The notes: a model not told the origin generated them from the letters alone. Shown: positions 20,119 through 47,598, counted from the first letter of the stretch. The stretch is 64,000 nt of DNA from Acidobacteriota bacterium (GCA_965209055.1 OZ242374.1:2752001-2816000), one strand, 5' to 3'. Made by a program: numbers and translations.

Positions 20119-20231
20119 TCCATCAATTTACCACAGAGGAGTGCCGCACCTCTGTTGGCTTGGGGAAGTCGAGAACTCCTCGAGCTCGAGCACGAGCAGA
20201 GAATGTGACTGTCCTGCTCACGAGTCGAAGC

Positions 20232-20483: not shown

Positions 20484-20621
20484 GACGCTGTCCCTGAAAC
20501 GCTGCATCCTCCGATAAGCCGGGCGCCCAGGGCGCGGGGACATTCTTGTCCTCGTCGTCATCGCCGAAGCGCTTACGCAATTGTACGCAAATGGTAAGAG
20601 AGGTGAATGTCCCCTTTTCAT

Positions 20622-20872
20622 CCGCAGGGTTTCCGGAGCTAAGTGATCGCCCTGTTGGCCGCTGCACTGGACCCAAGAGCCTTTTCGGAGGTCCGGGTCG
20701 AAAAGAGCATGAAGAGCCTGAGCCACCTACTCGCCAAGCCGGTCCGCTACAGGGAGCCCCCAAAACTGTTCTGCTGGGGCTCTTTCCTGAATTCGATCTG
20801 GAGCGTTTGATCCCGTTGGCCGAACCGGTCCGGGCAGTGCAGCGGTTCGACTCATCAGATTTTGGAGATTGA
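20622..20872 (+). repeat. Diverged, frameshifted copy 3 of the esterase 3' end
   Basis: ggtttccggagctaagtgatcgccctgttgg...gccaagccggtccgctac...ttcgatctggagcgtttg...tcagattttggagattga. Confidence 0.9.
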
Positions 20873-21073
20873 GTCCCCAGCGATCACGCGGCGTCCAGGG
20901 AGCGGGGACATTCTTGTCCCCGTCTTCGGCGCCGACGCGGCTGGCCGGAGCGACTGAAGGCGACCATACTCAGCAGGAGCATCGCGTCTCTCAAGCGCCG
21001 CTGTTGGAATTTTGCAGACGGCCTTGGTCTACTGCGTGGTCTTCCCATGGGCGGTGCGACTTTCCTTACGTCT

Positions 21074-21261
21074 CTATCGGATCCGATCGACTCCGAGATC
21101 CCGCCAGATGTTTTTGCCAGGACGTCGACAATATCCCGGTGTCGTGGAATTGCAGAACGCCGGTCACCGCGGTCGTTCCGCCACCAAGAGTGTCTTCCTC
21201 CTTCGCGGACCGGTTCGCAGCCCTGCTTTCGAAGGTGTCTCACCAAGTTGATCCGTTTCAT
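21074..21261 (-). pseudogene. hicA: HicA toxin with -1 frameshift in an A5 run
   Basis: MKRINLVRHLRKQGCEPVREGGRHSWW...AIPRHRDI; one extra A restores the ending AKNIWRDLGVDRIR*. Confidence 0.75.
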
Positions 21262-21467
21262 GCAACAACGACCTTCTCCTCGATGTAGTCGTCTCCCGCA
21301 GCCAATAGAGCGTCCCGCCGGTTGAGTTCAAGCACTTCGGAGAGCGTTTCGGCGAGGCATTGCATCAACTCCTCATGCGTGCGTTCCTGACAATTCACGC
21401 CGGGGACTTCCTCAATCCAGCCGATCCACCATTCGCCACAATGCTTCACGATGGCCGTGAATTCCAT
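21258..21467 (-). CDS. hicB: HicB-like antitoxin (short, no HTH)
   Basis: MEFTAIVKHCGEWWIGWIEEVPGVNCQERTHEELMQCL; AAAGGAG RBS; ATGA overlap with hicA. Confidence 0.85.
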   Translation of the reverse strand: MEFTAIVKHCGEWWIGWIEEVPGVNCQERTHEELMQCLAETLSEVLELNRRDALLAAGDDYIEEKVVVA

Positions 21468-21559
21468 GGTCGCTCCTTTTCTCAAACTTATACGCTTTCC
21501 GGGCGGTCACTGAGTTTCCCTCGATCACCACGTGGCGCCTGTAACCCTGAAATGTCCTT

Positions 21560-21735
21560 CGGAAAGAGAACCGCTTCCCGGTGGTCTTGGTCGCAGCCCA
21601 AGTCAATGCCTCAAATTCCCAACGCTCTTCCGCAGTGAGCGTGACACGATAGCGTGGTGCCATGAGAACCCCTTCTTCCGAGTTCTCCAGCCTCCTGCAA
21701 TAATTTATGCCCAATTACATGTCATGGAGTACCAG
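21560..21735 (-). mobile_element. IS630-family remnant (left end plus transposase N-terminus)
   Basis: MAPRYRVTLTAEERWEFEALT from ATG at 21663; upstream terminal-like GTACTCCATGACATG. Confidence 0.65.
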
Positions 21736-21899
21736 CCGCGGTCCGAGCGGCCCGGGCGCGATTGGAGACGGCGCAATGAGCGGCAGATCGGGCCCGGGAC
21801 AGGATCGGCCTGCGAAGAGTGGGCCACGCTACAAACGAGCGTGCCGGGAACCGGGTCCGAAGGCGCAGAGCAACTTCACAGAACGGGAGAGCGGGAGTC

Positions 21900-23228
21900 A
21901 TGATTGACCAGTGCAGTCATCTGTCAAGGCCCGGGAAGAGGATCGTGATTCTCCTTGGGTCCTGGCTGTGGGTTTTCGGCTTTGCGCCGCAACTCCACCT
22001 TCTTGCCACCGGCGAAATGACTACGGTGTGGTTGCAAGGCCTGACCGTTCGTCTGGAACAGCCCATCCAGGTGACCCAAACCATCGGTCATGCCTGGTTT
22101 CCAACTCTGGCCAAGTTTCCTTCCGGTGAGTTGATGGTGACCTATGCCGTGTCAGCGGATTCCAACGCTAATCCCTATTCGGTTAGGGCCTTTCAGATCT
22201 CCAGAAATGGCGGCCGAAGCTGGGGACACCGCTATGACCTCATCCCCGACCTTCAACCATCCATTTTCGTACCTCAGGCAGATGGATCTCTACTGGCCAT
22301 CCTGGCCCACCTCTACCAACCCGATCGGGAGGAAAGACACAACCTTCACACGAGCTACACTTATTTCGAGCGCGGCGGGAGCCGCGTTGTTGTGGAACCG
22401 GGCGGTGTGCGGGTAACGGACTGGCCTTGGCCGGTGGGCACGTTTCCGAGCCAGATCCCTCGAACCAACTGGATTGCCCGACTGAAGTTCTGCGGCGATG
22501 CTCTTCAGATGGGCGATCGTCTCCTGGCCAGCGGGTACATGAGGACCGGGGGGAACCTGGAGCCTCGAAAGGAAGAGAAGGTGATCAGCCTGCTCTTTGT
22601 TTCTGAGGACAAGGGACGGACATGGCGCTACTTTTCAACCGTGGCTGATCCTTCAGTGATGACTGCTGACGCCCGGAGGCGGGATCCTGAAGATCCGCGC
22701 TACCAGGGTCGGCCCTGGCCTCAAGAACTCTTGGAAGCCAGTGAGACCTCGATGATCCAGCTCGCCGATGGAGACCTCATGGCTGTGTTTCGAGTCGGCC
22801 ATTTCCTGGACTTGGGCCGGACCTACAGCAATGATGGGGGCCGTTCCTGGACCCAGGTGGAGCCCATCCCCCCCTTCAGCGTAGCGCCGAGTATGCTTCG
22901 CACCCGGAATGACACCGTCGTGCTCTCCAGCGGCCGCCCCAGTCTACGTGTCTGGTTCTCGATCGACGCCCGGGCGCAGACTTGGCAGGACATCGACATC
23001 CTCGAACATCACAACCGTTGGGCTCCAGACGCCAGCTATCGCATTTCGCAGCAGGGCCGAAGGGGCGGAAGGGGTCAGACCACCTCTTACACGGAGATCG
23101 TGGAGACCTCGGCCGACCGGCTGCTGCTGGTGTACGACCGCGCTCCCTTCGGCTGGGATCCAACGCCCATCGATTCCGGCGAACGAAGCCGCATTTTCGT
23201 TTTACCGATCGAGGTGCACCGCGATTGA
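21900..23228 (+). CDS. BNR/Asp-box sialidase-family protein
   Basis: SRNGGRSW, SEDKGRTW, SNDGGRSW; DGDLMAVFR; TSYTEI. Confidence 0.78.
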   Translation: MIDQCSHLSRPGKRIVILLGSWLWVFGFAPQLHLLATGEMTTVWLQGLTVRLEQPIQVTQTIGHAWFPTLAKFPSGELMVTYAVSADSNANPYSVRAFQISRNGGRSWGHRYDLIPDLQPSIFVPQADGSLLAILAHLYQPDREERHNLHTSYTYFERGGSRVVVEPGGVRVTDWPWPVGTFPSQIPRTNWIARLKFCGDALQMGDRLLASGYMRTGGNLEPRKEEKVISLLFVSEDKGRTWRYFSTVADPSVMTADARRRDPEDPRYQGRPWPQELLEASETSMIQLADGDLMAVFRVGHFLDLGRTYSNDGGRSWTQVEPIPPFSVAPSMLRTRNDTVVLSSGRPSLRVWFSIDARAQTWQDIDILEHHNRWAPDASYRISQQGRRGGRGQTTSYTEIVETSADRLLLVYDRAPFGWDPTPIDSGERSRIFVLPIEVHRD

Positions 23229-23479
23229 CCGGAGAGCCCGTCGTGGTCTTGGGTAGAAGCTTCCCGGGTGATTGGGTTGAACGAAGTGCGAAATCGACGA
23301 ACGTTTCTTCAAGGGGCTGCCGGGCTGACCGCGCCGCACACACACAAGGTGACTGTCCCCTTTTCGCGTGTCCGCTTTCCTCATGGACTGGCACGGCCGG
23401 TGCGGAATCCGAAGATCACCAGACCGAGCCCTTGATGACCGCGCGGCACCGGGCCAAAGCAGCCGACTTCCCTTGAAGA

Positions 23480-23678
23480 TCCCCTGCTTGACAAGCGCCG
23501 TCTGCGCTCTCTCAGGTCGGACCTGTTAGCGGCGCGTAACGCTACGGGTTTTCGTCTGTATCCATTGAAGGGCGACCGAGCGGGTCAATGGAGCGTGCAT
23601 CTATTGGGCAACAGGCGCGTGGTGTTCCGCTACGATGACGACGAGGCCGTGGATGGGGACTTGGTCGACTACCACTGA
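23480..23678 (+). pseudogene. higB: HigB (RelE-like) toxin remnant lacking its N-terminus
   Basis: GFRLYPLKGDRAGQWSVHLLGNRRVVFRYDDDEAVDGDLVDYH*; no in-frame ATG before the upstream stop. Confidence 0.8.
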
Positions 23679-23695
23679 TGTAAGGAGGAAAGATC

Positions 23696-24016
23696 ATGAA
23701 CCGCACTGGCAGCGAGCGCGTGGGTCCGATGCTGAACCCCCCACACTTGGGCGTACTGATCCGTGAGAGCATGGACGAGGTCGGCTGGAACGTGACCGAG
23801 ACGGCGGCGCGCCTAGGCTGCGAGCGGGGCACCCTGTCGCGTCTGCTGAACGGCAAGGCGGGCGTGTCCGCGAACATGGCGCTCGCGTTGGAAGCCATCG
23901 GCTGGGGTACGGCCGATCACTGGGTGCGGATGCAGGCGAGCTATGAACTCGCGCAGGCGCGAACGGCACGCGGGCGGCAGGAGGACGTGAGCATATGTGG
24001 TGCGGTTCGACGATAA
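23696..24016 (+). CDS. higA: HigA antitoxin (HTH XRE)
   Basis: NPPHLGVLIRE...AARLGCERGTLSRLLNGKAGVSANMALAL...WVRMQASYEL; AGGAGG RBS. Confidence 0.9.
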   Translation: MNRTGSERVGPMLNPPHLGVLIRESMDEVGWNVTETAARLGCERGTLSRLLNGKAGVSANMALALEAIGWGTADHWVRMQASYELAQARTARGRQEDVSICGAVRR

Positions 24017-24410
24017 CATCGTGGAGCTCGAGTGCATTCCGGCGGTCGCTGGCTGATTGGCCTCGTCGCGGCCACGTCCCGTGACCGGTACATGCAGAAA
24101 AAGTCACTCAGAAATAGTGACTGTCTCCGTTCTCACACCCGGATGCGTTGGTGACTTGGCTCCGGCGCTGCTCTGGGCCTTGATCCCGGCTCTCAGCCAA
24201 GACGCGGACGGCTACGACCTGCGCTTGTCTACCATGTGCCCGGAGTGAGCAAGCCCAACCGCAGGCGGAAAAAGTGACGGTCCCCTTCTTGCGGTCGGAC
24301 CGCGCGGCATACGAGAAGGGCGAGACGCAGAGTATCTACAGCGACTTCTTCGCGTCTTCGTAGAGAAGGTGACTGTCCCCCTCTTGTGGTCCGATCGCGA
24401 TTTCTGGTCA

Positions 24411-27400
24411 TCAGAGGTCGCTATCCATGTTTCCCGATGGAGTGTACTCAACTGTCACGCTGCCACGCCGGAGTCGCAGACGGTGACCGACGCCCTCTTC
24501 GAACGGGTTGGGAAGCCAGTCGAGCTGGGGTTGCTCCTGGAACACCCTCCTTATGCGAAGAATACGCCACCGCCAATCTTTCTTGTTCGCGATACGGTTT
24601 GCCGTGTCGATTTGGCCCGACGAAAGATCGAAGCTGGTGCTGTCCTCCGTCGTCGACTTCACCTCGACACACCACGTCTTTCCGTCGTATGCGAATCTGA
24701 AGTCATAGCCGAGGCTGTCGCTTGTCTTGTCCCTCTCGCCTTCCTGCAGGGGCAGGACCTTAGTCCTGAATTCCGAAACCCAGGCACGTTCGTCGATATC
24801 GAACCGGGAGCGCAAGAAGCGGTAGGCGTGCATTTCGCCGACGACCCCCACTAGACCCGGGAGGTGGGGGGAGCCATGTCGTGTTGCGGTCTTGCGATTC
24901 GTAAGGTTCGCGTCGTCCCGGGTTCCGGTGTTCACGACGGGATGGATCGACCGCTCGGCGGATGGAGTGTTCAATGGAGTGAACTCGTCGAGATGGGCTC
25001 GCGGGCCGATTGGTTTTGGAAGATCTTCCAGCCGCGCAAACAAGGTACTCAACGTCTCGGCGCCGCCGACCTCGTAAGGCGTTCCTCCGACGTTGAATGT
25101 CCTGTCCTCTCTTGCCTTCTTGCGAGTCTGGCGTCGACGATTTTGGTGCGTGCGTTCCAAGGATTGGCTAGAAATGTCGAGTGTCGCGCGCATTTCTTCT
25201 ATCGTCTTACAACCGGAGCAGGCGCGGAGGAACTGCGGGTTGGTGAACTGACGCTTCGCCCAGTTGAACAGATCAGCTTCCGACCAGTCCTGTAGGTAAA
25301 TTGAGGCATCCAGACGGAGATCAGGTACTTCCGCGCCTTGCGCCGAATCGGCTCCCGGTTTCGCAAGCCAAGCTTCGTAGAGTTCGCGCACCGATTGGAC
25401 AACGACATCGAGACTCTGCTGGTTGCGACGCGCTATCTCAAGAGGGTCGGGCTGTAGAGTTACGCCTTGTCGCTTGAGCGACGAGTTGAGTTCGTCGATG
25501 GTTCTCACGCCGTCGAGGATATCGAGAAACGGCTTGACTTCTGGGATGGCTTCATATCGAGTTCGTAGCGTACTCAGCACAGCGTCGAACGGTACTTTCC
25601 ACCAGCGGAGAGCCCATTCAGCGTCCATCTCGACGCCCTCGTGCGCCGCCCGGATTTCGGAAAAGATTTTCGCCTTATCGTTCATCGTAGGGAGGTTGGG
25701 GACCGTGTTGGCGACGTGCCGAGCGAAGGCACGAAGTGGACGCGCCGCCTCTTCCAGGTGTCGCCTCACTTGGCCCTCGGAGTGCTTGTTTCCGACTGGG
25801 AGATATTCACCACCGAGCTCCCGGAGGGCGTCGTTCCAATTCGGGAGCGTAGCGGCATCACCGAGGGCATGCCACGCCCTGAGCCCCATCTCGAAGTCAT
25901 CTCGGCACTCTCGAGAGGCCGCTATCAGTTCCTCGGTGGACCATTGCGGGATTTTGGATGACAGCCAACTGGTCAACTGTGCGACATCGGTAGCGGCCGC
26001 ATCCAGACCGGCATCGGAGACATCGAGAAGCTTCACGACTGGCCGAATGCGGTCGACAAGCGTGGAGGTCTCGCCGTACCAACGGTGTCGGATGTCCGCC
26101 AGCGCTTCGGCATCGATCTCCGCTCGATCCAAGGCCTTCTCGATCTGGCACTGCTTCGGTTCGGGTGTTCCGGCGAGGGACCCCAACACTAAACGAAGAT
26201 CCTTGAGCAGATCTTGACGATCGAGAATCGCTTGGCACGCAGCGGCCATGTACTCGTACAAGCTCTGTCGAGCGACATCCCTATGCAAGAGCAGGATGCC
26301 GTCTTTCGACAGCCAATGGGCTCTTGGCGCGCTCCGTGCGACAGTCTGGCCGGCATCCAATAGTTCAATCTCGATGGAGAGGCACTGACGGACGCGGGCC
26401 CTGCGAAGTCGTAAGACGGCTCGTTGCCACCTATCGGTTGCAGGACCCCGTGGGTTCACACCCCCGTGCGCGGCCAGAGTGAGGAGGATGACAGGTAGCC
26501 ATTCGAGGTCCGCTTCGTCAAACGTTTTCATTGCGTCTGCTGCCAGAGCCCCGGAGTAACCGTCGATTAAGCAGCGTTCTTTCAACTCGTTTGCCCGCCT
26601 CGCTCCGAGTTCGTGGACGCGGACCCCGACTAGGCCCCTCGCTTCTTCCGGCCGCATCGCGACGATCGGCTGACCGTGTTCGCGAAGTGACCGTGTCCGC
26701 GCGGGATGATCCGGTAGGTAGGCATCCCCGAGTTCGCTGGCTGTGCGGACAGTCAACGTTCGCGGTTTCGTCCGCACAAGGATTCGCTTGGGGAGGCCTT
26801 GATCCGGGTCCAAATGCCTCCACGCATGACGAATCTGGCCTAGGAATACTTCGAATCCGCCGGCCGGCATCGCATTCCGGGCCTTGGCGTCGGCCAAGGC
26901 TTCGAGGAGAGCCGGCCCGGTCAAAGCGTTCTCCATCGGGTAAACTTCGAGTCCGAGCATCTCCAGAGCCTGAAGTAGCTTCTGGTCTTCGCCCAGGCGA
27001 TGTGCCACTTGTAGTGATAGGGGCGATAGGTGGCGAAAGCGGCCTCTCTGACCTCGCAGGAGAGCCTCGGATACGAACCATCGCTGTCGCAGAGGTTGTC
27101 GGCCGCAGTCGTGGCCGTCATCGAGCCATGGCAGGGTCGAAAGCCAGTGTTTGAGCGGTGATGTGACCCGCTGTGACCAGGACCGGCCCCCATCTTTTGT
27201 GATCCTGACTTTTTCCCAGCCTCCCTTCCATCGGGCAAGTGAGGTAAGGATCAGTTCCGACAAGGCTTTTCGGGCGGAATCTCCGAGGTCCTCACGATGA
27301 AGCACTGCGAGCACTTTGACGTCCTGCAGTTTGTATTGGAACCATCCCTCAAACCCGGGTCTGATCTGGGCTCGAACTTCATCTCGCCAGCTCTCCCAAG

Positions 27401-29975: not shown

Positions 29976-30225
29976 CGCGCTCTGTCGTTACTCCGCGCGA
30001 CCGTGACGAATTTCGCCGCTTCGCGTAATCACCCGGCATGAGTCCGGTCCAAGTTGCCGTCCTGGGCCTTCGCGACTCCATCATTGTTTCTGTGTGCAAA
30101 AGCCAAGGTTTCACCCTGGCCCGCATCGTGAAGTTGTAGGTCACCATGGAACCCCCGGCCCAGGCAACGTCCGGTACCATGAGTTCTAATGAAAGGACGG
30201 TCGGACACCCAAGAAAACAGAGCGC

Positions 30226-32508: not shown

Positions 32509-32789
32509 GTGGAAATTCGGGTAATGGTGGTCTCATTATCCAACTGGGACGCGCAGGGCAACCGAGAGTATACAGACTGCCTCGTTTGCTCCGCAAAACC
32601 CTGAATTGACCTACAATAAAACGTCCTGAAGCGGATTCGTTATCTCAAAAGGAAGCTAACTGTCCCCGTTTCCCAACGCACCGTACCTCCCGCTGGGTAA
32701 CCGATGGCGACCACTTCGGTCAGGACTCGCTGCAAATTACCTTCGAATATGAGGTGCCGACGCACTCGCCGGCCCTATCCCTTTACGAC

Positions 32790-35363: not shown

Positions 35364-35500
35364 TGTTCCAGGCTCTCGATCGCCTTGTAGATCTGGAAGG
35401 GCAACTGCTGGAAGTCGATCTGGTACTTGTGGAGGAAATCGCGATCCAGGTATTTCGTGGGTGCGAAGACGAGCTTTCTTCTTGATCCGGCGCAGCGGAG
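35360..35500 (-). pseudogene. C-terminal remnant of the type III Mod methyltransferase
   Basis: KLVFAPTKYLDRDFLHKYQIDFQQLPFQIY...* overlaps the Res ATG (ATGA); truncated at the motif at 35503. Confidence 0.7.
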
Positions 35501-35661
35501 AGAAGGTGACCGTCCCCTTCTCACGTCCGGACTGTTGGTCGTGCGCGCTGACGATGAGCGCCGTCCGACCCAACATGCAAGCAGCCACGTAATCGGAGTT
35601 GTCGACCGCCGGACGCTCAACGCCCGATCATCGGCTTGGACACTCAAACGACGTTGTGGCG

Positions 35662-36582
35662 TCATCCAGGTTCCTGCCATTCATACCGCTCGTCCGACTC
35701 CGATTTGCCGCGAACATCCATAACCATCATGCGGCGTATGCCTAACTCTCGGAGCCGTTCTCCGTCGGACCGAAAGACCCGTTGACCTCCATCGCTCTCG
35801 GGCTCAAGCCTAGCCCTATCCTCTGCCGTTGTTTCCTCAACCCCCGTCCTATCGAAATTCCGTCTGGTGTCTTGATTAAGGTCATCGATCGTAGGGGCGT
35901 TCCACCCCGAGAACTCGGGTGGTACCACTACCTCATTGTCCGTAGCGACCGGCACATGGAGGCGTCCGACAGAAACAAACTGAACGAGATGCATATAGTC
36001 CACCTCGGCGATTTCCCACCTCCAGTGCATCGAGACGGATGGTTCGAACAGATAGTGCCAAGGTATGCACTTCTGCTCGACTTCGTCGAGCCTTCTGGTA
36101 AGAAGTGGCACGTCCGCCGCGTCGGCAAGCAAACAGCCAGTCTGGAAAGTCCTGTGACCTCGCCGTCCCTTGGGCTGTTTCCAGATCATTCGCTCTTGTT
36201 CGGTACTGTAGATGCAGTAGACCGGCTTCATTCTTGCAGTGCACGCCCCGGCAATAAGAAGGTCACGCTGTTGTCTGCCGGACGATTTCACTTTGTGTTT
36301 GACCTTCAGGACGCCGTTGCACTGCACCCGCTTTGCTTGTACCCGCATCTTAATTGTTCGCCTGTGCCCGACGATATGCCACTCCCAGTCCGCTCCGCTC
36401 TTCGCTTCCTCGCGCTTCGGGAACGTGCGGACACGTACGAGCTCTGGATGCCGCCGCCTGATTTCCAGAAGATTGCTCTCCGTAATGGTTTCTTCTCCGT
36501 AGCTCACCCAGACGTTGGACGGTGCGAGAATTCCAGATTGCGTGATGTCGAATCGCCCAGTCGGAGCAAGGTGGCAATCATG
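35662..36582 (-). CDS. DUF6615-like PD-(D/E)xK nuclease, probably frameshifted near its 5' end
   Basis: SYGEETITE, EEAKSGADWEW, RVQAKR, PVYCIY; N-terminal MIATLLRLGDSTSRNLEFSH lies in another frame. Confidence 0.65.
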   Translation of the reverse strand, partial: HDCHLAPTGRFDITQSGILAPSNVWVSYGEETITESNLLEIRRRHPELVRVRTFPKREEAKSGADWEWHIVGHRRTIKMRVQAKRVQCNGVLKVKHKVKSSGRQQRDLLIAGACTARMKPVYCIYSTEQERMIWKQPKGRRGHRTFQTGCLLADAADVPLLTRRLDEVEQKCIPWHYLFEPSVSMHWRWEIAEVDYMHLVQFVSVGRLHVPVATDNEVVVPPEFSGWNAPTIDDLNQDTRRNFDRTGVEETTAEDRARLEPESDGGQRVFRSDGERLRELGIRRMMVMDVRGKSESDERYEWQEPG

Positions 36583-36804
36583 GTTGATTTCAGGTTCTTC
36601 CTCCTCCCGGCACCTGCGGATGAAACTCTGCGATTCCTTACACGGACAGCAATCCGATCCCTATCCAGACACGTATGCACCGTATCCTGCCACATAGACC
36701 TCTTAAACTTTGAGTATAGGCTCGGGCCTGCAAGGGACGCCGGCTACAGCCACCCCTGACTGTCCGAGAGTCTTGGAGGAGCAGGCAGGGGACTGTCCCT
36801 TTGT

Positions 36805-37087
36805 GGACAATCCCGGCGCGACGGAGGTGGGGGGCGAAGCGCAGAGTTTCCGGACCCAGGTCGTGGTTTTGCTGGGCGCTGCAGTGGACCCGGCGGCCTT
36901 TTCGGAGATCCTGGTCGAGAAGGGCATTTGGAGCCTGAGTCTCCTGCTGGTCAACCCCGTCCGCTACAGCGAGGATCTGGAACTTTTCTGCTTGGTGCTC
37001 AATCGTGAATTCGACTTGGAGCGCTTAATCCCCTTGGCCGAACCGGTCCAGGTGGAGCAACGCATCGAGTCATCGGATTCCGGAGAA
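36805..37087 (+). repeat. Diverged copy 4 of the esterase 3' end
   Basis: DNPGATEVGGEAQSFRTQVVVLLGAAVDPAAFSEILVEKGIWSLSLLLVNPVRY...FDLERLIPLAEPVQVEQRIESSDSG. Confidence 0.88.
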
Positions 37088-37162
37088 TGGCACTGCGGCA
37101 GGGACGGGAACCCCGTATACTGATTGCTCTCGTGCAATAAATAGTGAGGACGAAATTATAGA

Positions 37163-39910: not shown

Positions 39911-40005
39911 GCGGTCTCCACGGGACCGTCCCCAGTAGCGTTCAGCAATACCATTCCTCTTTGTCGCTTCGTCGCGTGTCGGACTTCTGCGAAGATGCCA
40001 GCTCG

Positions 40006-42033
40006 TCAAGGTTTCGTATCGGCCGACCACGTGCGCAATGGTTGGACAATGTCGAAGGGCTCGCTCTTGGGAGCCCACGCCACAAACGGACTCGACGTGC
40101 GTGAGGCGGGTGCTGGATCCGGTAATCGGATTCTCGCTCGCGTCGGGACGTTGAAGGCGCTGCCAACGACAACCGCTTCGCCGGGAGCCAGGATGGTAAT
40201 CTGATCCATCAACCTTCGAGATTGGGAGGGCACGATCTTGCGAAAGTGATCGATGTCTTCGGGGTTCTGGAGGCGGTGAACAACGAAGTTTGCGCACTGC
40301 GAAAGAACGGTCGCGCTAACGTCGCTCGGGCGTTGGCTTGCGGCAATGAGAGAAAGGCCGAACTTGCGGCCCTCCTTTGCAATCCGCTCAAAAGTCTCAC
40401 GGGACACCGCAGAGCCCTTCGACTCGTCTTGGCGACGGGGGCGCACGTAGTTGTGTGCCTCCTCCAGGACGACAACCCACGGCTCCTTGAAACGTGCGGT
40501 GGCCAGCGCGTGTTCACGTACTTCGAGAAGTACCCGACCGATCATGCCGCAAACGTAGGGGAGAACCTCGTGGCCTAGCATTGAGCAATCGACTACGACG
40601 GTCGGTGCTGATTTGTAGTCTCCAATACCGAGCATTGAAAGCCAGTCTCCGATCGAGGTTATACCCAGCGCGTCGTAGTTGTAGAAGGCGTGCCAACGAC
40701 GGTCGTTCCTCCGGTTCTGAATTCGGAGCTGTAGCCCCTGAAGAAACTGTTTGATGCCCCGATCGCCGGGCGCAAGCTCGGCGGCGGCTTCGAGGTTCTG
40801 AGCGTTATCGAGTGTGCTGACCGCGAAATGAACTGGCTTGTCTGCTGTTTGCTCAATCGTGGTGGGTGAGGCATCCAGCCGCCGTTCGGCAGATTCTTTC
40901 ACGCGAAGCAGGGCATCTCGGAACGGGACTTGATCGGGTCCGAAGGACCTTGAGTGGGCCCACTCATTGTCCTTGGCGGGAGCGAGGATGTCATCGATCT
41001 TGTCAACAATCTCCTGCAAGTCCGTTTCCTGTAGTATCCACGGCAGGTAACCGAGGGTTGCCTCCCAGGCCCCGAGGCAGGATTCACCTTTTCTCGCCAT
41101 GTTGGGGTCGTTAATCCAGGCGAGCATTGCACCGATTTGGTTGACTCCGTGCTGAAGGTCCCTGCGTTCCAAAGCGACGCTCGCTCTGGCACCCTTGGCA
41201 AGCGCCCAGAGATTTACGAGGGCAGGCTGTTGCGTTTGCTCGGCGGCGCTCAGCCACTGGCATACCTCGTGAGCATTCATGAGCCAAATCGGCACTGTAG
41301 CCTCGCGTCCGTTTACGTAGATGCGGTTCGGCTGTTTGCCACCCGTGGGTTCCGGCACATCCATGGCCTGGGAATACTCGCCGTTCAGGTCAAGTATGAA
41401 GAAACGAGGTCTTGGCCAAGACTTACCGTGGACCGCCGCCGCCGACTGTAGGAGCGTTGCAATCGTACAGGATTTGCCGGAGCCGGTGTTACCAACTATG
41501 GCGAGAGGCCGCGAAAACAGATCATTGTATGAAGCGACAACTGTGCGATTGGTCGCGGCGGTGGCGCTTCCAACTTCAAGCGCGGAATCGAATGGGTCTT
41601 TCGACAACCAGCCGGCTGGCCTATTCCGAATTGGTGCTCGTTCAAGAACCGTTTGCAGGGTGTTCGTCGTGGCTGGCTGTGCCGGCGTATCCAGGGTTGG
41701 AAGGACAGTTACGCCGGGATCAAAGGCCATCTCACCACCGTGGGTCGATCGGACGACCCCGAGAAGCTGAACCGTTGCGGTGCGTCTCGGACGGACCAGT
41801 TCAAGGGACAGCCGCTGATCTTCTGGCTCAAAAACCTCCCGTGCGTAAAGGTCAGTAATGATTCCCAAGACATCCTCGCCGGCACCGATCGCAAAGGTGA
41901 TGAAGGCGTTGACCTTGACCTGAGTTGCCGCCCCGTCAAGCCCCGCTCGAATCGGGCTTCGATGGTCACGATTCAACTCAACCTTGACTCTGAATCCGTG
42001 CACTTCTACAACGCGCCCGAGCGGCTCAGTCAA
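40006..42033 (-). CDS. herA: HerA/DUF87 ATPase of a Sir2-HerA defence system
   Basis: N-terminal HAS-like barrel; AIVGNTGSGKS; LDLNGEY; VVLEEAHNY; ERIAKEGRKFG; SQRPS. Confidence 0.9.
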   Translation of the reverse strand: MTEPLGRVVEVHGFRVKVELNRDHRSPIRAGLDGAATQVKVNAFITFAIGAGEDVLGIITDLYAREVFEPEDQRLSLELVRPRRTATVQLLGVVRSTHGGEMAFDPGVTVLPTLDTPAQPATTNTLQTVLERAPIRNRPAGWLSKDPFDSALEVGSATAATNRTVVASYNDLFSRPLAIVGNTGSGKSCTIATLLQSAAAVHGKSWPRPRFFILDLNGEYSQAMDVPEPTGGKQPNRIYVNGREATVPIWLMNAHEVCQWLSAAEQTQQPALVNLWALAKGARASVALERRDLQHGVNQIGAMLAWINDPNMARKGESCLGAWEATLGYLPWILQETDLQEIVDKIDDILAPAKDNEWAHSRSFGPDQVPFRDALLRVKESAERRLDASPTTIEQTADKPVHFAVSTLDNAQNLEAAAELAPGDRGIKQFLQGLQLRIQNRRNDRRWHAFYNYDALGITSIGDWLSMLGIGDYKSAPTVVVDCSMLGHEVLPYVCGMIGRVLLEVREHALATARFKEPWVVVLEEAHNYVRPRRQDESKGSAVSRETFERIAKEGRKFGLSLIAASQRPSDVSATVLSQCANFVVHRLQNPEDIDHFRKIVPSQSRRLMDQITILAPGEAVVVGSAFNVPTRARIRLPDPAPASRTSSPFVAWAPKSEPFDIVQPLRTWSADTKP

Positions 42034-43397
42034 CGAATGTCTCCTTCATCGAATTCACCAGCCGACTTACCGCGCGGAGGTCCCTCGCGAACGAGATGTT
42101 CGACTCGGCGGAGACGAACGAAGTCATCTAGCCATCGGACGTGCGGCATGAGGTTCACTGCAAAGTCCTCGAAGGTGGCCCATTGAGGCGTTCCCTTGTT
42201 TTCTGAAGGGGCACTGGTTAGGAGAAAAGCGCGCTCGCCAGCGGTTTGATAGCGATCTAGACGTTTTTTCAACTGCGCAGGCGGCGTGGGATCAACGATC
42301 AGTACGACCAAGCTCGGGTTGGTTAGGGCCTCGTCGATGATTCGGTTGATGTGCTGATCTCCGAAGCCATAGCCAAGGATCAGAAAGAAAGTCTGAGGAG
42401 TCTTAAGGCGAACGTCGAGAGCTCGGAAGAGATGCGCGTATGGCATCCCGATCGACTGCAGGTACTTGCTCTCGGTCGGGAGAATGGCGGCAGCGTCCTC
42501 CGCATCGCTTCGAAGAAAGTCGAGTCTTTCATTTCGAGACCACCCCTGCCAATCTGTCCAGCGAGGAAGTGATCGAGAATCCGCACGTATAAGCTCACTC
42601 TGGGATTTCCGCCGCCAATCGACGGACCCGTGCAGCTTGTAGAGATGGAAGAACTTATCGAACCGCTGAACTCGACCCTCGGCTACCTCGCCCGGGTAGT
42701 ATAGATCTAGCGCATAGGCAGAGGAGTCGAACTTCGGCTCAACCGTTCCGATGAATCCGGTTGAGTAGCGAATTCGCAGATCGTCAGCTGCCGCCTCCAA
42801 GAGGAGATCGTAGTTGACTGTAAAGAGATGGGCTCTTCCAAGAGTAGGGTCGCGGGCGACGAGTTTCGCCACCAGAGCGTGATGACCTGACGGACCATCG
42901 GTTGAAAAACGTGGAAAAGGCAGTGAGCAGCGGGAGACTATGGTCCTTGAAATGGCCGCCATCAAGCTGGAAAGTTCGCCGGGCTTGAGTTGGACTCCCT
43001 TCGACCCGAAGCGTGCACCCACGGACCGAAACAGTGATCCTGACGCGTTAAGAGCATGTTCTGCGGTGGCAATGCTTGATAGCCACGTCTCAAATCCCAC
43101 AGCGGTGTTGCCTTGGTCCTTCCGAGCCCGCATTACGTCAAACGCCTTGCCGAGGTCGGGGATGCCAGGGCCCAGATCAAGAATGGTGTCCAAGACATGG
43201 TCCTGAAGTCCGGCAAGCGTGACACCGTTCTGTGAGATCGAACATCCAGCTCCAACGAGAATCACCATGTTCTCGATACGAAGCCAATCGGAGAGGAGAG
43301 CCTGGATCCGGTCGAGCGCGTCGGATCGGCTAAGTCCCTCAAGTAGGTCCCCTGATGATGCGTGAAGCTGGTAGACGTTGTCGCGTACCTCATGCAT
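42030..43397 (-). CDS. SIR2-family NADase of a Sir2-HerA defence system
   Basis: ILVGAGCS, FTVNYDLLLE, LYKLHGSVDW, LGYGFGDQHIN; 4-nt overlap with herA. Confidence 0.9.
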   Translation of the reverse strand: MHEVRDNVYQLHASSGDLLEGLSRSDALDRIQALLSDWLRIENMVILVGAGCSISQNGVTLAGLQDHVLDTILDLGPGIPDLGKAFDVMRARKDQGNTAVGFETWLSSIATAEHALNASGSLFRSVGARFGSKGVQLKPGELSSLMAAISRTIVSRCSLPFPRFSTDGPSGHHALVAKLVARDPTLGRAHLFTVNYDLLLEAAADDLRIRYSTGFIGTVEPKFDSSAYALDLYYPGEVAEGRVQRFDKFFHLYKLHGSVDWRRKSQSELIRADSRSLPRWTDWQGWSRNERLDFLRSDAEDAAAILPTESKYLQSIGMPYAHLFRALDVRLKTPQTFFLILGYGFGDQHINRIIDEALTNPSLVVLIVDPTPPAQLKKRLDRYQTAGERAFLLTSAPSENKGTPQWATFEDFAVNLMPHVRWLDDFVRLRRVEHLVREGPPRGKSAGEFDEGDIR

Positions 43398-43495
43398 GGC
43401 TGTTCCTTATGTCGCTCCACCGGCCAAGAGTCCGCGCTTTGTAAGACTTGGGACTAGTGGTATCAGCAGAAAAGGTGACTGTCCCCTTCTCACGT

Positions 43496-43894
43496 GCTGA
43501 GAGTCGTGCAAGAGGAACGCCAGTTGGCTGTAGGGCAGTTGCTGCCGGTGCTTGACGATGGCCGCGCGCAGGACCTGCTCCGCGGAGAGACCCGGAGCCC
43601 CTTGACCGGAGGTGGCGTTGTCACACAGATGGTGTAGAGCCAGATCCAGGATCGAGGGATTGCCGTCCAAGATCTTGGATACGGCTCTCAGTTCCTGGGC
43701 GAGTCGGTAATCGGGCCAGAGCCCGGGAAGCGGAAGCTGATTTTCCCGTTTTTGCCGCATTGTTCAATGCCTCGGTTTTGCGTAAGTCTTTTATTTGGCA
43801 CCGATAAACTAACAAACGACTGTGACAAAAACGGGGCATGAAAAGCCCCTTAGTCCTTATTTAACAATAACTTGCGGGTTTGCGGATGAGAACT
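43496..43894 (-). mobile_element. ISNCY-family IS remnant (left end plus truncated transposase)
   Basis: MRQKRENQLPL...ELRAVSKILD...GLSAEQVLRAAIVK...YSQLAFLLHDS, then breaks at the motif at 43472-43495; terminal-like gggtttgcggatgagaact. Confidence 0.72.
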
Positions 43895-43939
43895 CGATAA
43901 TTTCTTGGTCTCCACGGGTTCGCGAGAAGGGAGTGAGCA

Positions 43940-44698: not shown

Positions 44699-44908
44699 AG
44701 TACGCTTTCTACCTTGAGACTAGGATTCTGGCCTCCAGAAAAGTCCACCAAGCGGACTAGGACCTCGATGTGGAGCAGCTTACCGGCGTGGACGTTAGGC
44801 GTCGCGGGCCAGGCTGCCCGCGCCGCGGTCGTTAACTCTGAATCCAGCGCTTCCAGGGATGTCCCCTGCTCGTCCATGCTCTACTCGTGCCCGCTCTAAG
44901 CTGCGCGC

Positions 44909-45565
44909 CTAACCGTCGACTCCAGCACAACGAGCTAACGAGCTCGCCGTAATTCTCAGAAAGTTCAGCCCGGCCAGCACGACCAGGATGAAGATCGCGT
45001 GTAATGCATTCTTCGAGGCCTCATGCGCCACCGCCATCACGCTGACCTTCTGGTTCCCCACCCATTCATTCGAGAGCATGTAGTTCACTTGGAGATTCAG
45101 TAGCCGGACCCGATACGCGTCGCAGGTCTCACCGTCTTGTGGAACGATATCTTCAGGAGAAAGCTCCTGGTAGGACTTCCGCTCAAGACCGGCCAAGGTG
45201 GCTCGTAACAAGAACCAGAGCTGTAAGACCACATAAAGGACGAAGAACATAGCGACAATCTTGATTTCCTCCTCGACTGCGCCCAACACCGAGGAGGCGG
45301 CTAGACCTGCTATGAATGCGGCAGAGAGTACGGAGGTCAAAGTGAACAGGGACATTAGTTTGGATTCCACGCTCTGGACACGCTCTTCTACCTTGGCCAA
45401 GCGCGAGGCAAGGATGCGTTCCACATGGTCTAGGAGATGAGCTTGCTTAGCACTGAAGTAGTCCAAGTATCGGGGCTTGGGCTCTGCATCTCCGATAAGA
45501 TGCGGCCATATCCAGTCCGGGATTCGGTCACAGAATCTTCGCATGCGACTTAGTTGCTTAGCCAT
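44909..45565 (-). CDS. Three-TM membrane protein resembling Pycsar TM effectors (DUF5706-like)
   Basis: VESK before TM1, TM1-TM2 hairpin, ~55-aa soluble loop, NQK before TM3; start overlaps the ATP-grasp stop. Confidence 0.6.
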   Translation of the reverse strand: MAKQLSRMRRFCDRIPDWIWPHLIGDAEPKPRYLDYFSAKQAHLLDHVERILASRLAKVEERVQSVESKLMSLFTLTSVLSAAFIAGLAASSVLGAVEEEIKIVAMFFVLYVVLQLWFLLRATLAGLERKSYQELSPEDIVPQDGETCDAYRVRLLNLQVNYMLSNEWVGNQKVSVMAVAHEASKNALHAIFILVVLAGLNFLRITASSLARCAGVDG

Positions 45566-46506
45566 GCTGCAATCCTGTCTGAGATGGGTAGGCCCAGTTG
45601 GTCTTCGATCCAGAGCCATTCACCGTTGGGGTTGATCTCGAAGAACACATAGGTCCCGTCCGGCTTGAGAGCAAAGTCTATAGCGCCAAAGCTGATTCGG
45701 AGGTGGGAGACCAACCGGCGGCAGCGACGAGCGAGTGTTGAGGGTAACTTGTGCGCCCTGTGCTGCAGGTTCGGGTCGTCAGTTGCCCGCCAATCCACTC
45801 TGCTCGATTCTCGGTCCTGGGACAGAATTTCGGCAGCAAAGACCTCCTCCCCCACCACGGTCACACGGATGTCGGAGGATTTCTCCACCTTTTCTTGTAA
45901 AGTGACCGGAGCAACCGCTAATCCGTCGAGGTCATCGAGGTCATCTGGAGCCATCTCGCTGGTGAAGATCGCCTGGTTCCCGTGCGCGCCCGATATGTAG
46001 CCTGAGCTTAAGGCCTTGGCCACTAGCCGAGAGCGGGCTTGGGCAACGCTCCGTGCGGCTGCCGGGTCATTGGTCATTATTGTGAGCGGGAGCGTGAAAC
46101 CTAGTTGGGCAGCCACTGCGAGCTGGTAAGGCTTCCGTTCCGCCCTCCAGATTGCCTGGGGCGAACTCAACCAGCGCTGTGTTGGCAATGCTGCTAGGGA
46201 CCCCAACAGGAACGTGCGGGTCTCCCGTTCGCAGAACTCACGGGTGCCCGAGTCTAGGCATTCGGGCAGATTCGGGGCAACGTTACGTCGATACCAGACG
46301 GACTTGACTTGCCTACCAGAAATGCTCCGTTCTCCGTCAGAGATCGTGAGGGTCCCCTGCGGATCGAAGCTCGCTCGAATTTCCGAAGGGAATCGGTCGG
46401 TGTCCAGCCTGAAGAAGGGAACAGAGCGCCGCTCCAGACCTGCGATCACGTACTCGGGGGCAAGGTCATAGGAGGCCGTCACAAGAAGGACGGTGTCAGC
46501 TGTCAT
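45550..46506 (-). CDS. ATP-grasp RiPP ligase (MvdC/MvdD graspetide synthetase family)
   Basis: FFRLDTDRFP, SVWYRR, ERKPYQLAVAAQLGF..P.T..TNDP, TLQEKVEK.SDIRVTVVG, VDWR, FGAIDF, FFEINPNGEWLWIE. Confidence 0.93.
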   Translation of the reverse strand: MTADTVLLVTASYDLAPEYVIAGLERRSVPFFRLDTDRFPSEIRASFDPQGTLTISDGERSISGRQVKSVWYRRNVAPNLPECLDSGTREFCERETRTFLLGSLAALPTQRWLSSPQAIWRAERKPYQLAVAAQLGFTLPLTIMTNDPAAARSVAQARSRLVAKALSSGYISGAHGNQAIFTSEMAPDDLDDLDGLAVAPVTLQEKVEKSSDIRVTVVGEEVFAAEILSQDRESSRVDWRATDDPNLQHRAHKLPSTLARRCRRLVSHLRISFGAIDFALKPDGTYVFFEINPNGEWLWIEDQLGLPISDRIAAWLSN

Positions 46507-46636
46507 CCGTCGTTTCGCGAGAAACCTTGGTCACGAGGGTTCCTCTCTTCGAAAGCGCGGCATCCGTGTTGGACTTGTCCTTTTCCTTAGGGAGATGTAG
46601 TGCGAACTTTGCTAGGAATGGTACATTTGCAGGCAT
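46496..46636 (-). CDS. Graspetide precursor peptide, 46 aa (below ORF-track cutoff)
   Basis: AAGGAGG RBS; MPANVPFLAKFALHLPKEKDKSNTDAALSKRGTLVTKVSRETTDDS*; PFLAKF resembles the microviridin PFFARFL leader; core rich in T/K/S and E/D; overlaps the ligase start. Confidence 0.9.
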   Translation of the reverse strand: MPANVPFLAKFALHLPKEKDKSNTDAALSKRGTLVTKVSRETTDDS

Positions 46637-46766
46637 CAAAATCCTCCTTATTCGTGCTTCCTCAAAGGCGATAGACTTGTCAGTTGTCGGCGCACTGGGT
46701 GCGCCCCTATTTGGCCGCCAATAGGCGTCTGAACCCTTGAGGTACCAATTCGCTTTGGCGAAAGGG

Positions 46767-46798
46767 ATTATATACGAGTCTTCCCAGAATTTTCACAA
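46767..46798 (-). promoter_or_regulatory. Putative sigma70 promoter for the graspetide operon
   Basis: Perfect TATAAT (46767-46772, minus strand) ~130 nt upstream of the precursor ATG; weak -35 (GTGAAA/TTGTGA). Confidence 0.4.
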
Positions 46799-47598
46799 CG
46801 CTGCCGGTGGTTTCTTTGGCGCCGTGACCGCACGGGATGTTCACCAGATCAAACTTGGAAATGGACGTCGGCAGTCAGGTGTTTACGGCGTTTCCGATCG
46901 TGCCAAGTTCTGGAATACTGTCCCTGTGATCCTGTTCTACGATGACTTGTTGAGAATAGCTCGGAAAACGACCCTTCCCTGGAACCCCTTGGCCGACTGG
47001 AGGCGGCGATCCTCACAATCGCAGTGCGGGACAGGAAAGTGACCGTTTCCTTCTCGCGATGTTCATTTTCTGGCCGCTCACGCCCCCTTTTCGCGGTCGA
47101 GAAGGCATTCGTGCAAAGAGGTGGTTGCACACTTCTCATCTGAGTTCCTATTTAAGACTGAAGTCAATTTCGTTGCCGTTGCAGTGAGCAATGGAGGCGG
47201 CCGATAAACCGAAATCGTCCGCCACATCAGAAGCAATGGGTCCAACGCCGGGGAGAATCAGGAAATCCAGAAGGGCAGGACCTGGCTTAACGAGGGTCAG
47301 AATCAAGTCTGCCCTGATGGCTACGAAAAATATCAGACTGCGCCGCCGTTGGGCCGCGGATCTCGAATGCTGTAAAGGAAGAAACCCCGGACGAGAAAGT
47401 GAATGTCCTTCTCCCAAGATAGGGACGGTCCACTTTCTGCGCCCGTCCTTCTCCCAACATTCCTGCCGGAATTTCAGTGGCTCCTGGTTCCCCTGGATTG
47501 GTGGCCTTGGTCACCGTGATTCGGAGTAATCCGGCGCGGTTTGTTTTCAGACCTCTTCCTCCCAGTAAAGATCCAAATAATAATCTCGACTATGAATT

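Follow-up and report, generated by a model that had tools for sequence, protein, structure and literature searches.

A same-strand repeat of the TIRYT/TIRtron family delimits gene cassettes in a hypervariable, defence-rich locus of an Acidobacteriota genus

The window analysed is a stretch of 64,000 nt from an Acidobacteriota bacterium (genome G000). Its variable part lies between an esterase-like gene on the plus strand (15708-17825; weak AXE1 and GCE_fung matches), intact in 8/8 genomes, and a homocysteine S-methyltransferase gene on the minus strand (47599-48651), which forms the conserved right edge of the locus. The array begins 3' of the esterase stop codon and is punctuated by a repeated motif, one face of a 25-27 bp imperfect palindrome, (A)GAGAAGGTGAC-T-GTCCCCTTCTCA(CG), whose conservation is limited to about -12 to +14 around the centre. 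With a genome-wide position weight matrix, sites scoring at least 15 were counted. There are 15 of them in the window, centred at 17988, 19005, 20210, 20608, 23354, 24122, 24279, 24374, 32661, 35511, 36794, 43480, 47044, 47404 and 47427; the minus strand reads better for none, and no site of this score occurs elsewhere in the 64,000 nt. The original prediction had listed about 11 direct copies. All 11 were found, those at 32653, 36787 and 47396 being weak, while copies at 17980, 18997 and 20202 and a bare core at 39922-39933 had been missed. With up to 3 mismatches allowed, the originally predicted pattern matches the window five times (23346, 24271, 24366, 35503, 43472), against none in 100 shuffles; with up to 6, it gives ten plus-strand matches. 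The copy at 47421, thought to be inverted, scores higher when read directly (11.7 vs 6.9). Since the motif is an imperfect palindrome, it is also readable on the opposite strand at 35497.

The first copy (17976-18000; this and all further copies are on the plus strand unless stated otherwise) is degenerate and is followed directly 3' by an abhydrolase cassette (gene 18115-18966), as is motif 3625 in G001. The second copy (18993-19017), where a metagenome joint (18979->35497) begins, closes this cassette. A minus-strand PIN_10/DUF433 toxin-antitoxin cassette (19041-20118) is closed by the third copy (20198-20222), which is adjoined by a truncated 3' piece, or stub, of the esterase gene (20221-20571). 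A further stub (20625-20940) begins 4 nt 3' of the fourth copy (20596-20620), and the block 20627-21576 is 90% identical to the 3' end of the resident esterase of G001 and the DNA downstream. The fifth copy (23342-23366) closes a BNR cassette (21819-23228); a G000/G001 homology block stops at 23331, and X1 contigs diverge from the reference at 23361 and 23366. At the sixth copy (24110-24134), which closes a minus-strand HigBA-like pair (23542-24107), G000/G001 homology crosses into the motif and ends within its right arm. Copies 7 (24267-24291) and 8 (24362-24386) end empty units of approximately 150 and 95 bp, respectively, X1 contigs diverging at 24380 and 24383 in the latter.

Minus-strand cargo follows at 24411-32508, encoding a sacsin-like TmtA protein (Tiamat, PADLOC E 4e-207) and a GmrSD/Schlafen protein; one X1 contig joins across this block. 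At the weak ninth copy (32649-32673) a G000/G001 block begins (32670); the landing point of metagenome joints here is 32692. A type III restriction endonuclease gene (32790-35363, minus strand; PADLOC REase_III, E 9e-169) has no adjoining mod gene. The tenth copy (35499-35523) is the landing point of the metagenome joints 18979->35497 and 20868->35499. A type III mod gene had been proposed to be cut off at 35503; instead, res probably starts about 140 bp downstream of the motif (MILKEYQ, ~35363), and no remains of a mod gene were detected. Copy 11 (36782-36806), to which no strand was assigned, has a near-symmetric core, GGGGACTGTCCC, closes a DUF6615 cassette and is adjoined by another esterase stub (36805-37089). 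Stubs had been predicted after the motifs at 20601 and 36787; both are present, with a third after the copy centred at 20210. A core-only remnant, GGGACCGTCCCC (39922-39933, also unassigned as to strand), marks the end of a methyltransferase cassette (37163-39910), a G000/G001 block stopping at 39918. A HerA and SIR2 defence pair (40006-43397, minus strand; PADLOC E 7.5e-217 and 2.2e-130) precedes copy 12 (43468-43492), the best in the window. Next to it lies an N-terminal stub of an ISNCY transposase gene (43495-43760, minus strand; ~88 of ~444 codons). Comparison with the intact copy at G000 5263198 shows that the gene is cut exactly after ...CTTCTCACGTG, so that the predicted truncation at 43495 was correct to the base. 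Copy 13 (47032-47056) closes a block with an MvdD-type ATP-grasp gene (45550-46506); the weak copies 14 and 15 are adjacent (47392-47439), copy 15 being the one previously taken for inverted. In agreement with the original prediction, copies bracket the HigBA-like pair, the sacsin-like and GmrSD block and the ATP-grasp (graspetide) block. Beyond the homocysteine S-methyltransferase gene, a further copy is found in G004, G006 and G001.

That no copy lies beyond the island holds for the window but not for the genome, which contains approximately 187 sites on both strands, 65% of them intergenic, with clusters in low-GC islands. Clustering, proposed as a test, is evident from the finding that 107 of the 187 sites fall in 18 of 304 20-kb bins. 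The anticipated strand bias takes the form of local coherence: neighbouring sites no more than 5 kb apart are on the same strand in 64 pairs and on opposite strands in 19. Replication-strand bias of the sort known from IS608-type elements was not found (60+/47- and 29+/21-). The motif is enriched in 8/8 other searched genomes of the genus, and one genome from a different family shows the same enrichment. Compared with the copies in relatives, those of the window are more degenerate; some copies are adjoined by tandem duplications of the right half-site, and the hairpin formed by the DNA is weak (-1.2 to -8.1 kcal/mol; z +1.2 to -2.9).

The motif matches the inverted repeats around six RAYT-like HUH tyrosine-transposase genes of G000, paralogues with 72-83% identity. 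Five of these have one to four inverted units on both sides, GGGACAGTC on the left and GACTGTCCC on the right, and the sixth has left units only. The same layout recurs around the corresponding genes of G001-G007, G023 and G009-G012. In the sister genus the flanks, GGGACAGAC/GTCTGTCCC, are identical to its dispersed variant, and in G006 and G023 they are the island-type motif, the exact left arm of which is present on 0/6 of the G000 genes. The suspected linkage to RAYT genes is thereby borne out, their flanks being built of the motif; 26/187 sites lie within 1 kb of such a gene, an enrichment of only two to three times. The protein matches Pfam Y1_Tnp (37.5 bits), and its best NCBIfam model is the REP-associated tyrosine transposase (REP_Tyr_transpos; E 4e-14, positions 3-145 of 146), although its 52.6 bits are below the RAYT equivalog cut-off of 80. 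Across 17 sequences, neither the first histidine of the HUH motif (H69) nor Y168 varies, and the second histidine (H71) is present in at least 90%. Among fold matches, E. coli TnpA-REP ranks first (4er8_A, E 1.3e-6). At the C terminus lies a conserved domain of about 130 residues, partly well modelled, that matches none of the Pfam HTH families Bac_DnaA_C, HTH_23 and HTH_28 at E<=1.

The flank repeats carry GGGGACAG, fitting GGGGWSAS, the TIR consensus of the elements described as TIRYT/TIRtron (Di Nocera, De Gregorio and Rocco 2013, PMC3733652; also PMC6006769). The motif is thus the dispersed end-repeat of an element family of a kind already described, which is why it is not specific to the island. 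As far as the available parts of these two papers describe them, the elements agree with ours in having a RAYT-like Y1 HUH gene between inverted repeats, multiple paralogues per genome that each have a repeat variant of their own, moderately abundant dispersed repeats that are single, paired or grouped, and no strong hairpin. They probably correspond to TnpA-REP subclass 2.1 as outlined by Quentin et al. 2018 (PMC6006769); for the C-terminal HTH of that subclass Pfam gave no match in our proteins, whose C-terminal domain is nonetheless conserved. Likeness to REP/REPIN systems with RAYT (E. coli TnpA-REP, PDB 4er8; Pseudomonas REPINs) extends from the closest solved fold and NCBIfam model to a transposase gene bracketed by its own inverted repeats and to mostly intergenic dispersed copies. 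In canonical REP/RAYT, a GT[AG]G tag marks the base of a stable imperfect hairpin; here the consensus has no such tag, hairpins are weak and the protein scores under the equivalog cut-off.

If the island were a heap of broken TIRtrons and the apparent cassettes just DNA between wrecks, debris of the transposase genes should be visible. However, tblastn of all six proteins against the window gave only noise (best E 2.2), TIRtron flanks match the window solely through the motif, and the orientable copies are all direct, without inverted pairs. The window copies are therefore solo sites, and the transposon-litter account is scarcely credible. We also considered that the motif might be the attachment site of another recombinase, such as that of a multi-copy tyrosine-integrase element which targets GGGGGGAC-loop-GTCCCCCC hairpins in this genome. 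These hairpins share GGGAC/GTCCC stem letters with the motif, and the window contains an end of one such element near 58302-58492. Yet their loop is 5-7 nt and their sequence is that of a different family, none of 30 island ORFs tested matches Phage_integrase, and the motif covaries with the TIRYT flanks, making this origin very improbable. Slightly better placed, though still improbable, is a regulatory or insulating role, in which a domesticated TIRYT or another dimeric DNA-binding protein would sit on the palindrome and terminate, insulate or co-regulate accessory genes; junctions would coincide with the motif because every mobile module brings its own copy. The palindromic, 65% intergenic sites, the conserved C-terminal domain of unassigned role and the divergence among paralogues, which fits retained genes and not active insertion sequences, are in line with such a role. 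It sits poorly with the presence of sites in all four intergenic contexts at variable distances from gene starts and ends, with empty units and arrays of up to ~25 copies that are free of genes, and with the truncated genes abutting the motif, which it leaves unexplained.

The esterase-methyltransferase locus is a hypervariable cassette array. The gap between the two genes ranges from 5.4 to 37.5 kb in eight genomes, and what is new here is that a motif in a single orientation punctuates arrays filled differently in seven relatives. Altogether, 65 motif sites in the eight loci comprise 53 on the esterase-sense strand, 12 ambiguous and none on the opposite strand. When sites are compared in pairs, the left flank alone is shared in 51, the right alone in 33 and both in 14. 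In this genus, solo repeat copies, on one strand per locus, delimit one- or two-gene cassettes, each cassette being DNA with the motif at its 3' end. This arrangement goes beyond TIRYT/TIRtrons as presented in the available portions of PMC3733652 and PMC6006769, where no role is ascribed to the repeats; across this genus, solo copies cluster in variable islands and occupy cassette boundaries and truncation junctions, one strand per locus.

Breakpoints coincide with the motif between species as well as within populations, as had been predicted. Of 25 homology boundaries, seven are no more than 30 bp from a motif, where 0.73 would be expected (p<=5e-5); the other 18 are away from it, many being natural ends of esterase homology. 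Nine of 14 long metagenome joints touch the motif, in contigs placed at 90% likeness, where several joints have a side as short as 22-29 nt. Results for a second island are alike, and arrays in G023 show shuffling of two non-coding units at the motif. Among 17 truncated esterase stubs, 14 begin 0-13 nt 3' of a motif, at differing positions of the esterase gene, and 3 have no motif directly upstream; with such offsets, no single cleavage position emerges. With homology blocks and metagenome joints ending at the motif, and these 14 stubs and the ISNCY gene beginning 0-13 nt beyond its 3' end, its role as a cassette junction is well supported.

Junctions of this kind might also be produced by a passive repeat, that is, a selfish or neutral TIR/REP-like motif, merely spread by TIRYT, whose 25-27 bp of portable homology host recombination reshuffles, with truncations arising from breakage at the palindrome and illegitimate joining. 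REP sequences are known at duplication join-points in enterobacteria. Breakpoints fall in or near the motif and not at one nucleotide, direct repeats account for deletions and duplications (the tandem units shuffled in G023 are an example), the window copies are decaying, and no activity was seen. But 25 bp of identity is a poor RecA substrate, and a passive repeat predicts neither the strict orientation of 53/53 orientable sites in eight species nor a variable partner always on the 3' side of the motif (14 stubs and the ISNCY gene). Right-arm tandem duplications beside copies resemble, moreover, staggered site-specific events. On balance we regard a passive repeat as rather unlikely, though deserving serious weight.

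The explanation we prefer, with belief and doubt about equally divided, adds to the observed arrangement cassette joining in trans by TIRYT, one-ended events and array growth on the esterase side; that the transposases catalyse the joining is what we infer. A TIRYT enzyme acting in trans would bind the motif and nick one strand a few nucleotides 3' of ...CTTCTCA(CG). The nicked end could then be rejoined to the equivalent position of another same-strand copy, resulting in integron-like excision, insertion and reshuffling of cassettes. Without use of a second site, the end might be joined to an arbitrary point, a one-ended event as in IS91/ISCR, which would yield the motif|truncated-gene junctions of the esterase stubs and the cut ISNCY gene. 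Circles consisting of an esterase 3' piece, cargo and motif might enter the resident esterase gene by homologous recombination, with the former 3' end left behind the motif as a stub, so that the array would grow on the esterase side. No excision product, circle or strain-level pair of empty and filled sites was seen.

Tentatively, TIRYT enzymes may be the recombinases of an integron-like gene capture that employs HUH chemistry on single-stranded DNA and builds the defence and accessory islands of these sponge-associated bacteria, a broader proposal that we consider possible. Any DNA 5' of a motif copy could leave together with it and be reinserted 3' of a different copy, in addition to one-ended capture of anchor-gene pieces. 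If so, RAYT-type "domesticated" transposases and their repeats would gain a concrete function. The locus resembles an integron in that an array of one- or two-gene cassettes, each ending in a same-strand imperfect palindrome, lies beside a fixed anchor, varies in content and order between relatives and includes empty units. Integron attC sites, however, are 57-141 bp long with R''/L''/L'/R' boxes, whereas the site here is 25-27 bp without attC boxes, GTTRRRY included. As predicted, neither an attC-like site nor a local recombinase was found among the ORFs and sites tested in the island, an IntI-type gene included, and the candidate enzyme belongs to the HUH nucleases and not to the tyrosine recombinases. 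Integron cassettes are co-oriented behind a single promoter; island cargo genes lie on both strands and are therefore not driven by one promoter. IS91/ISCR, one-ended rolling-circle elements, share with this system the HUH enzyme class, one fixed and one variable end, and incomplete copies of a conserved neighbour that are cut short at varying positions. Unlike them, no IS91-type Rep gene was found, no target tetranucleotide was seen, and the enzyme would be supplied in trans by a gene located elsewhere in the genome. IS200/IS605 elements occur as near-identical mobile copies with same-strand subterminal hairpins and a lagging-strand bias, unlike these 72-83% identical paralogues with inverted flanks and no replichore bias.

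In Pseudomonas, strain-specific DNA and mobile elements are reported to occupy "REP deserts", REPs marking old, stable DNA (PMC3390384); on that account, in the part available, the repeats studied here do the reverse and mark variable DNA. As regards the integron-like defence-cassette assembly site originally envisaged, the junction role stands and enzymatic joining is conjectural, while restriction to the island and to defence cargo do not hold. The stub at the DUF1501 locus faces the opposite side of the motif. Cargo is defence-rich, though not defence alone, that of other islands including P450, Nramp-like protein, BNR and DUF1501 genes.

The pattern put forward in the original prediction matched the window five times when up to three mismatches were allowed, against none in 100 shuffles; inspection and a scan allowing six mismatches revealed related copies at all twelve of the coordinates claimed. 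An iterated position weight matrix yielded a longer and nearly palindromic unit, (A)GAGAAGGTGAC-T-GTCCCCTTCTCA(CG), whose conservation extends from about -12 to +14 relative to the central T. Its arms are consistently asymmetric at one position (GGTGAC versus GGGGAC). At a score of at least 15 the window contains 15 sites, all within 17988-47427; 12 or 13 of them score higher in the plus orientation and none in the minus. The copy at 47421, originally described as inverted, is near-symmetric and scores better as direct, while weak copies at 17980, 18997 and 20202 and a bare core at 39922-39933 had been overlooked. No Rfam family was found at gathering scores between 15000 and 50000, and the window has no tRNA genes. 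In a full-text literature search, 10-mers of the motif retrieved primers and unrelated matches only. A promoter reading, considered because of hexamers near several copies, was rejected by inspection only, since the -10 element is inconsistent among copies.

In the source genome (G000; a single 6.08-Mb contig, 62.8% G+C), where the window covers 2752001-2816000, the matrix identified 187 distinct sites at a score of at least 15. The reversed genome, used as null, gave 7 strand-hits against 313 real ones at score 16, and 41 against 401 at score 14. That the motif has no copy outside the island thus holds for the window only. A crude ad hoc gene caller (4435 genes, 87% coding) placed 122 of the 187 sites between genes, with all four gene contexts represented. 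Clustering is strong, 107 of 187 sites falling in 18 of 304 20-kb bins; the DNA around the sites is lower in G+C (61.5% versus 62.8%) and poorer in confidently called genes. Overall, 89 sites lie on the plus strand, 68 on the minus and 30 are ambiguous; neighbouring orientable sites no more than 5 kb apart share the same strand in 64 cases and are opposite in 19. Motif orientation in G000 has no replication-strand (replichore) bias, with the minimum of cumulative GC skew lying at 1.44 Mb and the maximum at 4.20 Mb. From these counts, clustering and orientation, the motif is neither private to the island nor uniformly scattered.

Relatives were searched with the half-site GACTGTCCCCTTCTC, allowing one mismatch, and the same sequence read backwards served as control. 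The tallies span 31 genomes, including the unpublished G016, on which no claim is based. G000 has 39 matches (control 0), each of the other eight genus members 29-129 (control 0-2), and G023, from another family of the same order, 77 clustered in about 70 kb (control 0). Sister-genus genomes have 6-21 matches, mostly to the variant GTCTGTCCCCTTCTC (control 0-5), and most other genomes searched in the order are at control level.

Across the genus, the corresponding locus is bordered by orthologues of the genes at 13383-15695 and 48778-51378. The gap between them measures 33.1 kb in G000, 37.5 kb in G001, 10.4 kb in G002, 7.7 kb in G003, 5.4 kb in G004, 11.6 kb in G005, 11.0 kb in G006 and 5.9 kb in G007; in G008 the locus is broken across contigs. 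An esterase-like gene marks the start of every locus and a homocysteine methyltransferase gene its end, with 2-15 motif copies per locus. The copies are coherent in strand: when the loci are pooled, 53 of 65 copies scoring at least 15 are in the esterase sense, 12 are ambiguous and none is opposite. We read the window as a series of about 14 units, each comprising one or two genes. Cargo comprises an abhydrolase, a PIN_10/DUF433 pair, a BNR protein, a HigBA-like pair, TmtA (Tiamat) together with a GmrSD-like protein, a type III endonuclease lacking a neighbouring mod gene (32790-35363; PADLOC E 9e-169), an arrangement common to G001, DUF6615, an Eco57I-like methyltransferase, HerA-SIR2 and an ATP-grasp block; there are also two empty units and three esterase stubs.

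Blocks common to G000 and G001, at 90-95% identity, end at the motif at G000 20627, 23331, 24130 and 32670, and G001 shows corresponding cases. Of 25 distinct homology boundaries, seven are no more than 30 bp from a motif centre; 0.73 would be expected at random, and the maximum in 20000 trials was 6. Among 69 sites scoring at least 13, 51 pairs share the left flank only, 33 the right flank only and 14 both. In the cleanest pairs (G005 3308/G006 3517 and G000 24122/G001 13114), homology spans the left flank and the motif and breaks at or within the right arm, so that the motif moves together with the DNA lying 5' of it. In the esterase-locus array, the 3' edge of the motif is the junction.

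Truncated genes provide junctions with one fixed and one variable end. Each genome carries extra truncated 3' copies of the esterase, 17 in all, of which 14 begin 0-13 nt past the 3' end of a motif-like copy (...CTTCTCA). The points at which these 14 enter the esterase vary (window equivalents 16939-17735). No motif stands directly upstream of the remaining three: G004 3758, the almost complete G005 5094, and G001 36324. In G000 the stubs are merely 74-79% identical to the resident gene, and the block at 20627-21576 is 90% identical to the resident esterase 3' end and downstream DNA of G001; the present 3' end of the G000 esterase is therefore the incoming one and the stub the old. The ISNCY transposase was correctly described as cut: the reading frame at 43407-43760 matches positions 11-84 of the 444 in the transposase model and nothing further, and identity to an intact copy at G000 5263198 ends exactly after ...CTTCTCACGTG. 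Truncation of the mod gene at 35503 was not confirmed, a mod remnant being absent from the Pfam, NCBIfam and PADLOC results. A second ISNCY-like fragment (G000 3200723-3200864), 73% identical to the window stub, terminates about 10 nt before a motif copy centred at 3200853. Truncation junctions and gene-free arrays led us to discard a LexA/operator or parS-like role for the motif.

Metagenome contigs leave or enter the reference array at the motif. Four runs contain 96-97% of the window stretch and are probably its source; 19 sponge or marine metagenome runs contain 8-19%. Contigs from four metagenome runs (X1-X3 and X20) were placed on positions 17001-37000 at 90% likeness; uncovered parts in X1-X3 were discounted, and only contig joins across them were used. 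Joints connect 18979 to 35497, 20868 to 35499, 23285 to 23345, 23361 to 20625, 23366 to 21324, 23366 to 32692 (an X1 contig spanning the whole TmtA-GmrSD unit), 24380 to 17523, 24383 to 36893 and 32993 to 23349. At least one side lies within 35 bp of a motif in 9 of 14 long joints, and 12 of 28 sides do so (expected 3.9%), in contigs assembled from mixed communities, with several sides of just 22-29 nt and a likeness threshold below 95.

A Pfam Y1_Tnp search of G000 identified a gene at 3750216-3751166 that has motif copies to its left and to its right. With its protein as query, six full paralogues, 72-100% identical, were found in G000; each genus relative gave 3-12 matches, and G023 has two complete copies. 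For five of the six G000 paralogues, one to four short units lie within about 400 bp on each side of the gene. These units carry GGGACAGTC in the left flank and GACTGTCCC in the right, in a flavour specific to each paralogue. The sixth (2674674-2675594) has units on the left only; to its right, a P4-type integrase-like reading frame starts from 2675594 onward, and this looks like an island inserted at the right end of the element. The same layout of gene and flanking inverted units recurs in loci of G001-G007 and G023. Sister-genus flanks (GGGACAGAC/GTCTGTCCC) are the variant dispersed there, and those in G006 and G023 are identical to the island-type motif. The protein scores 37.5 bits against Pfam Y1_Tnp; its best NCBIfam model is the REP-associated tyrosine transposase (E 4e-14, under the model cut-off). 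H69 and Y168 are invariant in an alignment of 17 sequences, and H71 is found in at least 90%. The predicted fold (pLDDT 79) has as its top solved match 4er8, E. coli TnpA-REP with a REP hairpin (E 1.3e-6), followed by the IS200, ISDra2 and IS608 transposases.

This combination of gene type, inverted repeats and a shared GGGGWSAS, here as GGGGACAG, places the motif in a known kind, the TIRYT/TIRtron. In the literature searched, these names are used only by Di Nocera et al. 2013 and Quentin et al. 2018 (PMC3733652, PMC6006769). The available portions of both papers describe RAYT-like genes whose terminal inverted repeats share GGGGWSAS and, in some genomes, occur as dispersed families of moderate abundance, with no function assigned. 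The titles and abstracts searched contain no RAYT, REP or TIRYT repeats acting as cassette boundaries. The family is known; its behaviour at cassette junctions is new as far as the literature searched goes. The window has no TIRYT gene debris, and an origin of the island as litter of broken TIRtrons was rejected.

HUH Y1 enzymes cut and join sites lying on one strand, as established for IS608 and TnpA-REP. We infer that TIRYT catalyses the joining, acting in trans: it would nick one strand just 3' of the motif, and the nicked end would be joined to another motif copy on the same strand or, failing that, to an arbitrary point. Such one-strand chemistry would explain how direct copies can exchange cassettes while the inverted flanks of the gene hold it in place. 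The main rival is host recombination acting on a portable repeat. Catalysis by TIRYT has against it the weak folding of the motif, with a stable hairpin unsupported, the absent replication bias, and junction offsets whose 0-13 nt spread does not fix a single cleavage nucleotide. If TIRYT does the joining, it would represent a second solution to gene-cassette capture beside integrons, mechanistically unrelated to them; if it does not, the locus nevertheless shows clearly that a short repeat can organise turnover of the accessory genome. Combining a single anchor gene with eight species, as many as 15 cassettes and a site of 25-27 bp, it is a compact natural experiment touching on two questions, the purpose of RAYT/TIRYT-type transposases and their repeats and the module-by-module assembly of defence islands. 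In Pseudomonas, as far as the available text of PMC3390384 goes, variable DNA is located in REP deserts; here the repeats accompany variable DNA, so that motif-organised turnover reverses the 'REP desert' rule.

A second island of G000 (2014001-2032000; locus L035) has seven motif copies, all on the minus strand, and blocks 93% identical to relatives start and stop at the copies at 2995, 4791, 7263 and 7312-7681. Between L035 2995 and 7263 (G000 2016995-2021263), Nramp-like, DUF5916 and CBM9 cassette blocks share 93% identity with five other species; the core genes flanking the window locus reach only 83-88%, and this difference suggests that the L035 cassettes were recently exchanged between species. 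A DDE transposase element (L035 793-2706) adjoins a motif copy at 2969 and has three additional 100% identical copies in G000 (1179910, 3009719 and 5284722). Other G000 clusters carry defence-type or mobile cargo (toxin-antitoxin pairs, restriction-modification pieces, an OLD-type nuclease, GmrSD, transposases) as well as P450, Nramp-like protein, BNR, PhyH and DUF1501/PSD1 genes. Two such loci (L036 12722-15481 and L037 365-1837) contain two full DUF1501 genes and one 3' stub (profile positions 304-390), alternating with motif copies on the minus strand and with toxin-antitoxin genes of ParE/HTH and FitA-like type; the stub lies on the 5' side of the motif, opposite to the esterase stubs.

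Non-coding arrays were also found. In G023, locus L002 4150-5900 (G023 1459150-1460900) consists of repeated units of about 200 and 133 bp in mixed order, which end in ATGACTGTCCCCTTCTCC and start with a partial motif copy, GTCCTTCTCC or ACAGTCCCCC. In G000, 1751900-1752500 contains about 25 half-site units on one strand (GACTGTCCCCATTTCC or variants of it) within 600 bp, gene-free between units, upstream of a gene and 10 kb from a TIRYT paralogue. Finally, 191 bp of the window outside the island (58302-58492; minus-strand reading frame at 58391-59476) are 83% identical to the DNA immediately right of the TIRtron at G000 3139781; because they resemble an element end, the window may carry a copy of a multi-copy integrase element there.
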